Virus record (IMG/VR): IMGVR_UViG_3300009184_000167
Span: 1-27,087 of that record
Length of the DNA stretch: 27,087 nt
Direction: 5' to 3' (one strand)
Source: a virus
Taxonomy: Duplodnaviria > Caudoviricetes
Of the stretch, positions 1,429 through 6,232 are shown piece after piece. A program made the position numbers and the translations under genes. A model generated the notes under the pieces. It made no database searches, was not told the origin of the DNA, and worked only from the letters and a program-made list of their open reading frames with translations. The first letter of the stretch is position 1, and each line of letters begins with the position of its first letter.

Positions 1429-1821
1429 CTATTGGTCGGGACAAACGGACAGCAGAGACTGAACCCGAAGCAGGTTGACCGCTTCGTCGATCAGCTCCTT
1501 TGCTCGAGTCAGGCTGTGCTGCAGGTCGCCGATGCTGTTTTGCAGCTGCTTAAACTCGAGCGCGATCTTGGCTTCCACTACGGCAAGCTCTTCTGCGTCG
1601 TGCTCTCGGCAGGGTTCGCAATTACAGTAGCCGTCAAGCTGCCGACGAAGGCGTGCGATAGCAGCTTTCTTTTTTTGGATGTGACCGAGCAGTGGGTGTG
1701 ATGCCACCAGCTTTGCCGTTGGCTCACCAAATGCGCGAGCCCCGCTCCTTGCAGCCCAAATAGTTTTGAGACACACCTCGTCAAGCACTTGCTTGGCGGG
1801 CACCTGTTTCACCGTGACCAT
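1429..1821 (-). CDS. hypothetical coiled-coil protein with CxCxxC motif
   Basis: ORF track; SD GGAAGGAGG; heptad-like C-terminal half. Confidence 0.75.
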   Translation of the reverse strand: MVTVKQVPAKQVLDEVCLKTIWAARSGARAFGEPTAKLVASHPLLGHIQKKKAAIARLRRQLDGYCNCEPCREHDAEELAVVEAKIALEFKQLQNSIGDLQHSLTRAKELIDEAVNLLRVQSLLSVCPDQ

Positions 1822-2129
1822 ACTGAGTAGCCCTCCTTCCTGAGTTGCTCGGCAAGCTGTGCCTCAGCCCGCTCGGCGTCCTGCCTTGTTGTGTACGTGC
1901 GGCCATCACTGAGGTCCGTCCTCAGTCCGCGCCCGTACTGTGTAACGTATCCCCTGTTCGCATGTACACCCTGCTTGTGCTGGGCGTACCGGTACTCGGG
2001 GTCATGGGCGGTGCTGCCTACATACAGGCAGCGGGCACCACCCTTAGGGTTGGCTCGCCGGACTCGGCCGTGATCAAGCACGGCGGGATCCAGCTCAACG
2101 ACATAGAGACTGAACACGTAACTCCCCAT
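1809..2129 (-). CDS. stand-alone GIY-YIG-like nuclease-domain protein
   Basis: SLYVVELD...CLYVGST...RYAQH...AERAE matches the GIY-YIG pattern; ATG at 2129 with SD GGGAGGUG. Confidence 0.75.
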   Translation of the reverse strand: MGSYVFSLYVVELDPAVLDHGRVRRANPKGGARCLYVGSTAHDPEYRYAQHKQGVHANRGYVTQYGRGLRTDLSDGRTYTTRQDAERAEAQLAEQLRKEGYSVWSR

Positions 2130-2143
2130 CGGAACACCTCCCG

Positions 2144-2186
2144 AAAAGAAAAGGGAGGCCGGCGCCACCATGGTCACCGGCCTCCC
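2144..2186 (-). terminator. terminator-like hairpin plus U tract directly after repeat copy 2
   Basis: GGGAGGCCGGUG/CGCCGGCCUCCC stem followed by UUUUCUUUU. Confidence 0.7.
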
Positions 2187-3469: not shown

Positions 3470-3486
3470 ATCGAACCGTCTACTAC

Positions 3487-3513
3487 TACTCGCCGACCCC
3501 TGAAATCAGGGGG
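3487..3513 (-). promoter_or_regulatory. conserved intergenic element copy 3
   Basis: + strand TACTCGCCGACCCCTGAAATCAGGGGG, containing the perfect inverted repeat CCCCTGA-AA-TCAGGGG. Confidence 0.7.
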
Positions 3514-3523
3514 TTTTCTGTGG

Positions 3524-4045
3524 CTACTTGCTCGCGTCCCGCGTCCGCTCCAGTAGCCACCGCAGCGTGGCTTGAATGCTAACGCCGTCAGCCGACAACG
3601 CTTCTCCGACTATCCACTGTATCGCCAACCGTTCATCGTCAGTAAGCGACGGCCCTCCGCACACTGGGCACTTCTCCACAGAACCAGCCGATGCAACGGA
3701 CGGCCCTGCTACTTCATGAGTCATGGTGAATCCTGTGGTGGCCGCCGTTGATCTTCCGTGTTCTGCAGCAGCCAGCTGCTCGCACAGTTTGTTGACGCTC
3801 CGCTGCAAAGCTTTGGCAGGTGCCAGAGAATTGCACAGCAAGAACAGTGCTCGGCCGCCCATTCGGGGGTCGTCTCCTCGCACCATAGTGCCGGGCTCAA
3901 CAGGCTCGGTGATCTCACGGAAGATGATTCCGTGATTGCCTTGCTTGTCCCTCGTGTACGCCAAAAGAACCTGGCCGCAACCGAGCGAGACGCGAGCAAG
4001 GCCTACGCCGTCGTCGCACGTTCCCATCTCAAAGCACTGGGTCAT
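3524..4045 (-). CDS. hypothetical protein, 173 aa, with C-terminal CPxCG and LTDDER...ATLRxLL module
   Basis: ORF track; SD GGAGGUG; overlaps the upstream stop. Confidence 0.75.
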   Translation of the reverse strand: MTQCFEMGTCDDGVGLARVSLGCGQVLLAYTRDKQGNHGIIFREITEPVEPGTMVRGDDPRMGGRALFLLCNSLAPAKALQRSVNKLCEQLAAAEHGRSTAATTGFTMTHEVAGPSVASAGSVEKCPVCGGPSLTDDERLAIQWIVGEALSADGVSIQATLRWLLERTRDASK

Positions 4046-4323
4046 TTAGCACCTCCGATCTTCTTCATCCGGACACGGGCCGCATCCAGCGTGCGGTCCT
4101 GTAACTTAGCCGCCAGCCGCTCGACCTGAGCAGACAGTGCGTCAACCTTCTGGCTCATGCCGTCTACCATCACGGACATGGCAGACTCGCGGTCGTCCAT
4201 GTCGTCCTTGAGCCAGTCGACCCGGTCTCGGGCAGACACGGCCATCTTCCAGGTCACGTACACGCTGGCTATCACAGCCAGGATGGCACAGCCTTGAGCT
4301 GCACTCAGGGTCACGAGCGTCAT
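4042..4323 (-). CDS. putative membrane-anchored coiled-coil protein, 93 aa
   Basis: N-terminal hydrophobic helix followed by heptads; SD GGGAGGA. Confidence 0.8.
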   Translation of the reverse strand: MTLVTLSAAQGCAILAVIASVYVTWKMAVSARDRVDWLKDDMDDRESAMSVMVDGMSQKVDALSAQVERLAAKLQDRTLDAARVRMKKIGGAK

Positions 4324-4365: not shown

Positions 4366-4424
4366 CCTGCAACGGCGCAGGAATGGTGGCCCAGCCGAAG
4401 CCAGGCCACCGATCGCGAGCCGTC
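4366..4424 (-). ncRNA. unassigned structured RNA motif, copy A
   Basis: GACGGC-UCGCGAUC-[GGUGGCCUGGC UUCG GCUGGGCCACC]-AUU-[CCUGC GCCGUU GCAGG]; homologous to 5750-5810. Confidence 0.6.
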
Positions 4425-4430
4425 TACCTT

Positions 4431-4456
4431 TACTCGCCGACCCCTGAAATCAGGGG
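4431..4456 (-). promoter_or_regulatory. conserved intergenic element copy 4
   Basis: + strand TACTCGCCGACCCCTGAAATCAGGGG; contains the stop codon of the upstream gene. Confidence 0.7.
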
Positions 4457-4626
4457 CGAACAGCAGGGGCCACCTTCCAGCGGCCCTTGTAGGTGTCATT
4501 CATCCATTGCCCGTACTTGGCACGGATAATGAGGGTCGCCTCCTTCTTGGTCCTGGCAGGGATGGCCTCGAACTGGAACCATCCAGGCACATACATCCAC
4601 AGGGCCCACATCTTTTTGCGTGCCAT
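4450..4626 (-). CDS. small basic/aromatic protein, 58 aa (MARKKMWALWMYVPGW...)
   Basis: ORF track trimmed to the ATG at 4626 with SD GGAGGUG; lies just 3' of the hammerhead. Confidence 0.75.
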   Translation of the reverse strand: MARKKMWALWMYVPGWFQFEAIPARTKKEATLIIRAKYGQWMNDTYKGRWKVAPAVRP

Positions 4627-4653
4627 CAAACACCTCCAAAGCACAGGGAAACT

Positions 4654-4705
4654 GCCCTCATCAGCTGCCGCCTAACGGCAGGACCCGCCGAAGCGGGTTT
4701 CGGGC
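4654..4705 (-). ncRNA. type II hammerhead ribozyme
   Basis: GCCC GAAA CCCGC UUCG GCGGG UC^ CUGCCG UUAGG CGGCAG CUGAUGA GGGC: all core nucleotides (CUGAUGA, GAAA, UH) and three perfect stems; predicted cut between 4682 and 4681. Confidence 0.93.
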
Positions 4706-5169
4706 TACTCTCCAGCCAGAACACTGGGCACGTCATTGCCCAGCTCGAGCAGCTGCTGGCACAGCGTGGCATGGCGGGAACGCAGCGAAGCCAGCTCAGC
4801 AAAGAGCCGGTCGCGTTCTCCCTCAGCCACAGCAATCTGTGCCTTCGCAGCATCCAGCACCTGCTGGTTACGCCGATCTGCCTCAATGGCCTGATCACGC
4901 TCCTGTTCCGCCACCGAGACCTGCCTCTGGCAAGCAGCCAGGACCTGCTGGTTGACGGCCTCAGTCGAAGTGATCTTCGCCATCAGCTGAGCCCGAGTCG
5001 GAGCATGCCACCAGTCAGAGACCGACTGGCCCAGCTCACCAAGAGGGCTCACCACGTACCGAGTGACGTAGTGAGACGGGCCGCCCGTAGACAGGAACAT
5101 CGACGCCATCGAACCAACGGCCACCAGGACACAGGCCGCAACAAACAGGTCACCCTTACGAAAGGACAT
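4705..5169 (-). CDS. putative membrane-anchored or exported coiled-coil protein, 154 aa
   Basis: N-terminal hydrophobic segment; internal repeat NQQVLxAxxxQxxVAExERD twice; SD GGAGGUG. Confidence 0.8.
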   Translation of the reverse strand: MSFRKGDLFVAACVLVAVGSMASMFLSTGGPSHYVTRYVVSPLGELGQSVSDWWHAPTRAQLMAKITSTEAVNQQVLAACQRQVSVAEQERDQAIEADRRNQQVLDAAKAQIAVAEGERDRLFAELASLRSRHATLCQQLLELGNDVPSVLAGE

Positions 5170-5272
5170 GGGACACCTCCACAGAACTCCCGCCCAGTCC
5201 GCCGGCTGACTGCCGACTAAAAGACTGAGCAGGAAATGCGGTTGGTGGTAGGTGCCGCTGACCTGCTACTGA

Positions 5273-5298
5273 TACTCGCCGACCCCTGAAAACAAGGG
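5273..5298 (-). promoter_or_regulatory. conserved intergenic element copy 5
   Basis: + strand TACTCGCCGACCCCTGAAAACAAGGG, abutting the stop codon at 5299. Confidence 0.7.
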
Positions 5299-5595
5299 TT
5301 ATTCGCAACAACCAGCCCTTTCTGGCTCGAGCCTAAAGACCATCGTCTTGCCGGCCCGGCGATTGCCGATCACGTCAAACCCGTCTGGCCGGATGCATCC
5401 GTAGAAGTCGCGGGTCATTCGCGGCCTGTAGTTCCAAGCGTTACGCACCTTCCACGCAATGTAGAACGTGCCGTCCCACGTGTTGATTAAGTCCTTCATG
5501 TAGATCTTGAGCTGCTTCCAGCCCTTGAGATCCATGTAGAACGAGTAACTGTCGCCACTGCTCTCGTAGACATCAACCAGTACAGTCTTGGCCAT
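5299..5595 (-). CDS. hypothetical protein, 98 aa
   Basis: ORF track; SD AAGGAGG. Confidence 0.85.
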   Translation of the reverse strand: MAKTVLVDVYESSGDSYSFYMDLKGWKQLKIYMKDLINTWDGTFYIAWKVRNAWNYRPRMTRDFYGCIRPDGFDVIGNRRAGKTMVFRLEPERAGCCE

Positions 5596-5607
5596 ATTGG
5601 CCTCCTT

Positions 5608-5718
5608 TCAGTGTGAAGCGACCCAAGCACGGAGCAGCGCCAGTACCACGTTGGCGGCGCAGTCCAAGAGCACAAGGACCAGCACAGCACGCATCGCTGC
5701 GCGTAGAAGCCAAAGCAT
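5608..5718 (-). CDS. small hydrophobic peptide, 36 aa (MLWLLRAAMRAVLVLVLLDCAANVVLALLRAWVASH)
   Basis: Not in the ORF track. SD GGAGGA 6 nt before the ATG; stop runs into the next SD. Confidence 0.7.
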   Translation of the reverse strand: MLWLLRAAMRAVLVLVLLDCAANVVLALLRAWVASH

Positions 5719-5749
5719 TTCCAATCCTCCAAGAGAAAGACCCGAACAA

Positions 5750-5810
5750 CCTGCAAAGGCGCAGGGTGGGTGGCACTTAGTCACTCCGTGCCACCGGACC
5801 GCGAGCCTTC
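5750..5810 (-). ncRNA. unassigned structured RNA motif, copy B
   Basis: GAAGGC-UCGCGGUCC-[GGUGGCAC..GUGCCACC]-CAC-[CCUGC GCCUUU GCAGG]. Confidence 0.6.
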
Positions 5811-5813
5811 AGC

Positions 5814-6149
5814 TCAAGCAGTGGCTCGCATGTAGAGCCCGTTGTCGCACCAGTCCGCAGCGAAGTCGGGAGCGCAGACTTCGTGCACCACTTCGGCCGA
5901 GTAGCCATTGGCATCAAAGCCATCCACCCGAGCCGCTAGGGCAAACGTCGGCCCAGCGGGAGAGTCAGCCACAAGGCTGTCCGCAAAGCTGCGAGCAGCG
6001 TCAATGCTCCTGAACCACTGAGAGACCTCAGGGTCTCCGAGACAGATCCTGTTGCCGTCCTGCTTGACAGCCCAGTAGGCCTCGACGCTGATGTGAGGCA
6101 GAACCCGAAAGAACCTGAGTGCGCCGATAACGCAATGCTTGACGTGCAT
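5814..6149 (-). CDS. hypothetical protein, about 111 aa
   Basis: ORF track 5814..6155; ATG at 6149 preferred, SD weak. Confidence 0.7.
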   Translation of the reverse strand: MHVKHCVIGALRFFRVLPHISVEAYWAVKQDGNRICLGDPEVSQWFRSIDAARSFADSLVADSPAGPTFALAARVDGFDANGYSAEVVHEVCAPDFAADWCDNGLYMRATA

Positions 6150-6207
6150 GACCAAATCCCATGCCAGTCAGTCCGGTGCGAAGTGCACTGGGTGCTGCTG
6201 ACACTGT

Positions 6208-6232
6208 TACTCGCCGGTGCCTGAAAACAGGG
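6208..6232 (-). promoter_or_regulatory. conserved intergenic element copy 6 (divergent)
   Basis: + strand TACTCGCCGGTGCCTGAAAACAGGG, with ACC>GTG in the core; heads the whole left arm. Confidence 0.6.

Follow-up and report, generated by a model that had tools for sequence, protein, structure and literature searches.

A two-state RNA element between phage early genes and its candidate role as a cut-and-cap signal

The DNA analysed here, hereafter the window, is a 27,087-nucleotide (nt) stretch of a tailed phage (IMG/VR virus record IMGVR_UViG_3300009184_000167, positions 1 to 27,087) that carries, on its minus strand, two copies (A and B) of a short RNA motif placed between early genes. The motif belongs to a real, uncatalogued family of two-state RNAs in phages, represented by 78 distinct copies. 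Sequence comparison supports two mutually exclusive folds, a long irregular hairpin (fold 1) and a short 3′ hairpin (fold 2) that reuses five of the same bases. The element is conserved between the genes of phage early operons, and we estimate at about one in two the probability that it is a cut-and-cap signal, nicked by a host RNase III-type enzyme just 5′ of its CCNGC segment.

A family of RNAs with two alternative folds

Copies A and B agree in every letter with the original prediction, which had been made from the window alone, and in both the 5′ hexamer is complementary to the loop hexamer of the last hairpin, with a C-G to A-U change between the copies. A strict structure descriptor finds no sites in the window other than these two, against five matches in 150 dinucleotide shuffles, whereas its relaxed form was overrun by chance matches and was discarded. 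The folding z-scores are −4.15 for copy A and −2.38 for copy B. Rfam contains no family that matches either copy at gathering score or at an expectation value (E) up to 10, and none that matches 21 further loci.

Relatives were retrieved by pattern scans of viral contigs, through relatives of the capsid protein and by two rounds of covariance-model search, a check proposed with the original prediction, and the pair has become a family. The model search over 47 stretches gave 95 matches, 82 of them distinct, of which 78 were retained after removal of four rows that have no proper arm (L215, L230, L244 and L346:4065); the last of these, found in a genuine slot, could be a copy that has decayed. 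The retained copies form 37 clusters at 85% similarity. Thirty-four fit none of the retrieval patterns and owe their detection to the model only; the other 44 fit one. With the second covariance model, matches at E up to 0.05 were obtained in 43 of 50 records, a proportion that is no prevalence because the 50 were selected by pattern match or capsid kinship; among records selected by capsid kinship only, 5 of 23 were matched at E < 0.001, and two complete genomes gave no good match to the model.

Copies are present in the window's group of ~60-kb phages and in phages of 36–38 kb, in five records of which a search with the window capsid protein, run without a positive control, found no match. 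Among cultured phages, no relative of the window capsid protein was found and the motif matches are chance pieces of 18–28 nt only. Cellular genomes gave nine pattern loci, none counted as confirmed: the six that reach model E < 0.1 were pattern-selected, and the alignment of one locus (L378) is missing a proper upper arm. In 24 of 64 parts of the metagenomes, 119 loci were found, chiefly chance matches, with L210, L240, L255, L273, L274, L289, L308 and L313 genuine. Literature searches, judged mainly by their result listings, brought up no description of the motif. Its string is absent from the four searched supplements of Fremin et al. 2023 (PMC10690425), whose alignments were not among the material searched, and the motif may be among the 8,495 unnamed candidates of that work.

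In the numbering used here, the 5′ hexamer X occupies positions 3–8, the linker 9–13, the upper arm 14–48, CCNGC 49–53, the loop hexamer X′ 54–59 and GCNGG 60–64. Fold 1 consists of a lower stem of 11 positions, fixed in length and with two fixed mismatches, surmounted by a variable upper arm, and fold 2 is the 5-base-pair (bp) hairpin CCNGC/GCNGG, which takes up positions 49–53 again. Across the 78 copies, the lower stem pairs at 4-58 in 78 (always A-U), at 5-57 in 74 (four pair types), at 6-56 in 78, at 7-55 in 63, at 8-54 in 45, at 9-53 in 19, at 10-52 in 78, at 11-51 in 72, at 12-50 in 8 (otherwise a C.C or A.C mismatch) and at 13-49 in 77, and the first pair beyond it, 14-48, forms in 78 (five types). 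Fold 2 pairs in 73–75 copies at each position. Over 82 aligned rows, 91.6% of 872 cells are paired in fold 1, with 136 double changes, and all slid registers are at most 45% paired; for fold 2, 95.1% of 410 cells are paired, with 12 double changes. None of 500 shuffles equalled either fold, although such shuffles take no account of kinship and their figures are not probabilities.

The base at position 51 has a partner in each fold. In ten copies, spread over seven similarity clusters, it is A, C or G instead of U; its fold 2 partner, 62, pairs with it in all ten and its fold 1 partner, 11, in nine. In copy L128, positions 13, 49 and 64 are exchanged together. Among 32 model-only copies (the 34 minus two rows of a short subtype), 51-62 is paired in 31 and 11-51 in 26. 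Because one base cannot hold two Watson-Crick partners simultaneously, two exclusive folds are under selection. Comparative evidence for a natural two-state RNA is seldom as clear as this three-way covariation, in which a single base follows partners that exclude each other. The two short-subtype rows, L059:304 and L358:2187, have a lower stem shorter by 2 nt and an uncertain register; they were excluded from the position-51, wobble-pair and cut-register counts, leaving 76 rows, and the A13-U49 change seen in them was not counted as covariation. In four copies (L035 1569-1632 and 1143-1206, L059 304-367 and L358 2187-2250) the canonical GCNGG arm is lost and a shifted hairpin of 4–7 bp is possible over the same CC bases.

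The original prediction had left a choice between a pseudoknot and two exclusive folds. The exclusive folds are borne out by the covariation of position 51 with both 11 and 62, while the predicted ground state is one long hairpin and not a pseudoknot, because the linker after the hexamer pairs with CCUGC too. This hairpin is the minimum-energy fold of copies A (−35.3 kcal/mol) and B (−29.1 kcal/mol). In ViennaRNA, fold 1 is ahead in 68 of the 78 full-length copies and fold 2 in six; once the 5′ strand is cut away through position 6, 9 or 13, fold 2 is ahead in 60, 67 or 72, respectively. The program cannot score kissing pseudoknots, and these counts say nothing on that structure. Three bases, A4, G52 and U58, are invariant in all 78 copies, and each of them has a partner in fold 1; the mismatch at 12/50 persists in 70.

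With 86 G-U against 21 A-C, the wobble pairs speak for the sense strand, so the structure belongs to the messenger RNA. This count bears on a DNA-level reading, in which the motif would be a recombination site, attC-like or built on repeats, through which early genes are shuffled. The attC sites of integrons form an imperfect palindrome after each gene, fold as a bottom-strand hairpin, show R-box pairing of their flanks and are used by the IntI integrase; in integron cassettes, the stop codon lies in the left arm of attC. The motif is likewise an imperfect palindrome behind each gene with a stop codon in its left arm, and it occurs in gene-motif-gene arrays of up to eight copies per record (G039). 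However, it folds on the sense strand and its flanks have no R-box pairing, a tyrosine integrase (PF00589) is above cut-off in none of 14 records (three weak matches lie below it), and recombination gives the short hairpin no role. A DNA element is very improbable.

A candidate RNase III-type cut followed by refolding

The comparison shows the sequence, the family, both pairings and the context; we infer which fold comes first, which enzyme cuts, where it cuts and that the cut pieces gain stability. Fold 1 would form first on the nascent transcript and offer about 22 helical positions centred on 48|49, the junction of upper arm and CCNGC. At this junction the long hairpin would receive a single nick from an RNase III-type enzyme of the host, after which GCNGG would displace the weakly paired 5′ linker to form fold 2. 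The downstream message would then begin with a hairpin and zero unpaired 5′ bases, and the upstream message would end in the upper-arm hairpin shortly past its stop codon. The element would do by an enzyme's cut what the neighbouring hammerhead does by self-cleavage. If this is correct, one 60-nt element cuts the polycistronic phage message, strand exchange caps both pieces with a protective hairpin, and the element is interchangeable with the hammerhead of the same operon; the long-open question of why phages place ribozymes between genes would therefore become directly testable. The family predicts exact new 5′ ends, at window positions 4381 and 5765.

In the portions of the RNase III literature drawn on here, the enzyme requires an 11-bp helix beside the cut, binds about 22 bp and prefers defined pairs (PMC1540722, PMC6212723), and single RNase III nicks in T7 early RNA leave stabilising hairpins (PMC8708148, PMC3867540). 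Six candidate cut registers on the 3′ strand were scored over the 76 copies by the rules of the Escherichia coli enzyme, which may not be those of the host enzyme, with position +10 placed after the deletion series in PMC1540722 and PMC8708148. Register 48|49 is the only one of the six to agree with several rules. It has 11 positions below it (two of them mismatches) and at least 11 above, as the duplex size rule asks. In the proximal box (pb), position 2 (+3) is a paired non-GC position in 87% of copies and position 1 (+4) is G-C in 89%, its G52 being invariant; in the distal box (db), position 1 (+10) is U-A in 76 of 76; and the −1 pair is G-C or C-G in 86%. The same junction coincides exactly with the first base of the short hairpin. 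The register was chosen after inspection of the data, so that its fit is a suggestion and falls short of a blind test. A Mini-III site was rejected as an identity: the ACC^U motif described in the part of PMC6212723 used here is not kept, position 48 being A in 2 of the 78 copies.

The length of the upper arm is also compatible with a duplex of this size. The stretch 13–49 measures 28–40 nt in all 78 copies, and the shortest still has at least 11 pair-equivalents above position 48. Viral contigs were scanned for gaps of 6–26 and 39–69 nt with a tight pattern that 29 of the 78 members fit. The short-gap scan returned nine loci and no genuine short-armed copy; three were shifted matches to long-armed copies, and at L388 a lower stem is possible in a locus that has no stop codon and ribosome-site context and, by eye, looks like coding sequence of the opposite strand. 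The long-gap scan returned 31 loci, one of them genuine (L405, 44 nt). The L035 copy at 2237-2174, which stands before a promoter-like repeat, keeps fold 1 and has lost its GCNGG arm; it was counted in favour of the cut. No phage-encoded RNase III (PF14622) was found in 14 records, whereas 8 of 14 control genomes were positive.

A close known parallel is found in the RNase III signals of T7 early mRNA (R1.1 RNA), which like the motif are long irregular hairpins that span about two helical turns and separate early genes. Messages in T7 are matured and protected through a cut in one strand, according to the parts of PMC8708148 and PMC3867540 used here; the corresponding cut in the motif is a prediction. 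Judged by the rules excerpted from PMC1540722, the best register of the motif shares the +4 G-C, the +10 U-A and, less clearly, the non-GC pair at +3. Unlike the T7 signals, the motif carries C-G at +1 and a mismatch at +2 and lacks U-G at +9, its stem embeds the upstream stop codon, and a covarying second fold would, by prediction, cap the new 5′ end. A built-in arm for refolding of this kind was not found in the RNase III literature cited, and no search able to exclude one was made.

Several observations weigh against a cut of this kind. An A-U or U-A pair at pb position 4 (+1) occurs in 0 of 76 copies, nearly all having C-G, which slows cutting 7-fold for the E. coli enzyme and 10-fold for the Aquifex enzyme. 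At pb position 3 (+2), 8% are paired and the remainder have a C.C or C.A mismatch. U-G at db position 2 (+9) is found in 7%; the Aquifex RNase III is described as having no db sequence requirement (PMC3074117, in part). Strict A-U or U-A at +3 reaches 47% only, the remaining non-GC pairs being mainly U-G. Because three rules fail, the element is not filed as a canonical E. coli-type RNase III site, and the cut at 48|49 is a prediction from sequence. The limit on arm length and the fixed stem are partly products of the search patterns, which 44 of the 78 copies match, and arm length could instead reflect a requirement for a strong 3′-end hairpin. The canonical short hairpin is broken in five copies (three in L035 and one each in L059 and L358), and its sequence is conserved beyond pairing needs (C50-G63, C53-G60). 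Finally, 52 of the 78 copies have the upstream stop codon within the lower stem, so that a terminating ribosome would melt the proposed cut site.

The same conservation raises the question of whether another protein, such as a different host nuclease or a phage RNA-binding protein or nuclease, reads the C.C or A.C mismatch together with the flanking invariant G52. Retention of the mismatch in 70/78 copies, and of G52, A4 and U58 in 78/78, exceeds the usual conservation of RNase III sites, for which the portion of PMC8708148 used here gives no strong consensus. No candidate protein was identified, however, a host factor is favoured because the motif is common to groups of phages whose capsid proteins differ, and the two-turn geometry is what RNase III measures. 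A reader of this kind is doubtful and ranks below every alternative except the DNA element.

Stop codons, hammerheads and ribozyme-like features

In the 52 copies just mentioned, the best upstream open reading frame (ORF) ends at motif positions 2–4, with UGA or UAA and never UAG; in 12 others it ends 2–8 nt earlier. The next start codon, found for 72 copies, lies 10–64 nt past GCNGG, mostly 24–47, and the downstream ribosome-binding site is hidden by neither fold. The purine at position 3 and A4 are retained also in copies that have no stop there. The hammerhead between copies A and B is a type II match (4705–4646), though under gathering score, with a stop codon at its 5′ edge and a ribosome-binding site downstream; its 3′ product would open with stem I. 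Hammerhead-like matches in these loci lie within 2–8 nt of a stop codon in nine of nine cases, and the motif copies share their slot with hammerheads. Further type II hammerhead-like sequences stand straight after stop codons in L342 (two sites) and L086.

Clustered phage type II hammerheads, which flank single genes, have been proposed to divide long transcripts into messages the length of a gene (Perreault et al. 2011, PMC3088659, in the part used here). The motif has the same slot and the same proposed purpose, and one hammerhead lies between copies A and B. It differs from a hammerhead in that the CUGANGA/GAAA core is absent from the alignment and in that it has neither a three-way junction nor an Rfam match.

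The position of the stop codons also suggests a ribosome-operated switch, in which a ribosome terminating at positions 2–4 would cover the RNA to about position 13 and open its 5′ strand, so that fold 2 takes over. The footprint of a terminating ribosome reaches about +15, and loss of the 5′ strand through position 9 already yields fold 2 in 67 of the 78 copies. Translation of the upstream gene would thereby be coupled to the fate of the downstream message (its cutting, stability or re-initiation), with or without a cut. However, overlap with a stop codon alone proves no translation coupling, because hammerheads abut stops too, and it may be simple compaction; purine-3 and A4 are conserved even where they form no stop; no ORF ends at copy A, which sits behind a promoter-like repeat; and the downstream ribosome-binding site is uncovered in both folds. 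The switch agrees with the embedded stop codon but with neither the promoter-proximal copies nor the general compaction. It comes second, below the cut-and-cap signal, and both the flip and the coupling are unlikely.

A further possibility, which was part of the original prediction, is that the RNA cleaves itself, which would make it a new ribozyme class. The hexamer would kiss the loop of the short hairpin and the linker would dock on the CCNGC/GCNGG helix, the long hairpin being an intermediate or an off state. Such an off state might be built in, the ribozyme becoming active once GCNGG invades and the hexamer kisses the loop, possibly triggered by a ribosome at the embedded stop. The slot is identical to that of hammerheads, the sequence of the short helix is conserved, the weakest pairs (8-54 and 9-53) stand where a strained loop crossing would permit them, and the stem opens with a purine-pyrimidine or G-U pair in 68 of 73 cases. 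New ribozyme classes came from such contexts (PMC4604425) and pistol has a 6-bp loop pseudoknot (PMC6154101), according to the excerpts used here. The ribozyme and pseudoknot reading is weakened because the three invariant bases are all paired in the long hairpin, because conserved linker bases are explained by Watson-Crick partners, and because the upper arm holds a minimum length, unlike a dispensable ribozyme stem; no short upper arms were found in the scan. The way in which position 11 tracks 51 by Watson-Crick pairing (9 of 10 variants) suits strand exchange better than base triples, no Rfam ribozyme family matches any scanned copy, and type II hammerheads were detected in just 4 of the 16 records that bear the motif, the five records of the 36–38 kb type that were checked having none. 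Of the original proposal of a new self-cleaving or switch RNA, the new structured motif with real covariation and two folds stands, and self-cleavage is less well supported. A ribozyme is improbable, third in order behind the ribosome-operated switch, and the same holds for one with a built-in off state.

Pistol, as presented in part of PMC4604425, has three stems and a pseudoknot, a fixed 2-nt junction and 10 highly conserved bases. The motif resembles it in being phage-associated and in having a short stem that could engage its loop in a 6-bp pseudoknot (PMC4604425, PMC6154101), but it has no P2 stem and no conserved G-U junction between two stems, three invariant bases stand against ten conserved ones, and its hairpin helix competes with a covarying alternative pairing. 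Twister, twister sister and hatchet are built on a double pseudoknot, or on a core of several stems in which conserved bases stay unpaired, in the description used (PMC6154101, in part), whereas the conserved bases of the motif are paired. With a ribozyme of the hepatitis delta virus (HDV) type, the motif shares the purine-pyrimidine or G-U first pair only. The strand order of HDV-like ribozymes is P1-P2-P3-L3-P3-P1-P1.1-P4-J4/2-P2, and the 8 nt between the arm and X′ of the motif are too few for P2-P3-L3-P3; no Rfam match was obtained.

The genes downstream of the copies are varied and include RecT, ERF, DUF932 and GATase, the majority being of unknown function. The original prediction had tied the motif to small hydrophobic proteins. 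This association does not extend to the family, in which 3 of 72 downstream ORFs are hydrophobic, two being the neighbours of copies A and B; regulation specific to hydrophobic proteins was rejected, and the hydrophobic neighbours in the window are incidental.

The early-gene strand of the window

From ~8.9 kb on, the plus strand of the window carries the capsid, terminase, portal and tail genes. On the minus strand, from ~6.2 kb to the window start, runs a series of small genes without known function, and this early run holds six promoter-like repeats of 35 nt, one type II hammerhead and the two motif copies (Table 1). An intrinsic terminator was rejected as an identity of the motif: copies A and B are not called as terminators, a call at 4367–4347 corresponds to the next hairpin, and the 3′ flanks of the family are mostly A/C-rich.

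Table 1. Motif copies and neighbouring features in the window (aa, amino acids)
Feature	Window position	Strand	Remarks
Motif copy A	4366..4424	-	Motif positions 3-64; 55.3 bits, with a model whose training set included copy A
Parts of copy A	X 4424-4419; linker 4418-4414; upper arm 4413-4382; CCUGC 4381-4377; X′ 4376-4371; GCAGG 4370-4366	-	
Predicted cut, copy A	between 4382 and 4381	-	Candidate site
Motif copy B	5750..5810	-	62.1 bits, with a model whose training set included copy B
Parts of copy B	X 5810-5805; linker 5804-5800; upper arm 5799-5766; CCUGC 5765-5761; X′ 5760-5755; GCAGG 5754-5750	-	
Predicted cut, copy B	between 5766 and 5765	-	Candidate site
Type II hammerhead	4646..4705	-	RF02276; 30.2 bits, E 0.006, under the gathering score of 37
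Promoter-like 35-nt repeat	4421..4455	-	Immediately upstream of copy A; one of six copies
93-aa ORF 3′ of copy A	4042..4323	-	Start 42 nt past GCAGG; GGAGG before the start
36-aa hydrophobic ORF 3′ of copy B	5608..5718	-	Start 31 nt past GCAGG; GGAGG before the start
ORF 5′ of copy B	5814..6155	-	Stop codon ends 3 nt ahead of the hexamer
ORF between hammerhead and copy A	4450..4644	-	End falls within the promoter-like repeat

The 93-aa product encoded 3′ of copy A has a hydrophobic stretch at its N-terminus and matches no protein family above cut-off. Elsewhere in the early run, a 122-aa ORF (1809–2177, minus strand) has no Pfam match at E 0.001; we take it, as an impression only, to resemble a GIY-YIG-type nuclease.

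The 35-nt repeats lie on the minus strand at 1132–1166, 2182–2216, 3477–3511, 4421–4455, 5263–5297 and 6198–6232 and contain a short internal palindrome. We infer that they are promoters; they do not match the sigma-70 consensus, and assignment to sigma-70 promoters was rejected. Related repeats occur in L035, L059, L063, L091 and L037. Three of the window copies are followed immediately by a GC-rich hairpin and a U run, which could be 5′-end hairpins or terminators controlled by antitermination. In the relative L048 (1–3300, minus strand), nearly every early gene is preceded by another short repeat instead of the promoter-like one, and the motif is still present.

Two further leader structures are conserved. 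After the first promoter-like repeat comes a second leader hairpin (window 6204–6160, minus strand; L035 ~3497–3455; L059 ~1456–1415; L091 ~1472–1432) with a constant outer stem, a covarying inner stem and no Rfam match. A third leader of ~100 nt (window 5270–5165, minus strand; L035 ~2143–2050; L091 ~185–90) consists of a C-rich single strand and, after it, a long branched hairpin that extends to the ribosome-binding site, with a z-score of −4.18.

Within the motif itself, the 11-nt terminal loop of copy B (5787–5777) is near-identical in seven copies whose stems differ. It is also found in L035 (1569–1632), L059 (304–367), L143 (347–411 and 1551–1615) and L358 (1551–1615 and 2187–2250), carries a Shine-Dalgarno-like GGAG or GAGG in most, and is confined to the window's phage group. 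An A-tract/G-tract pair at window ~6478–6462 (minus strand), which precedes the first early repeat by about 250 nt, is conserved in seven viral records (L139–L145) and is possibly a genome-end or packaging signal.

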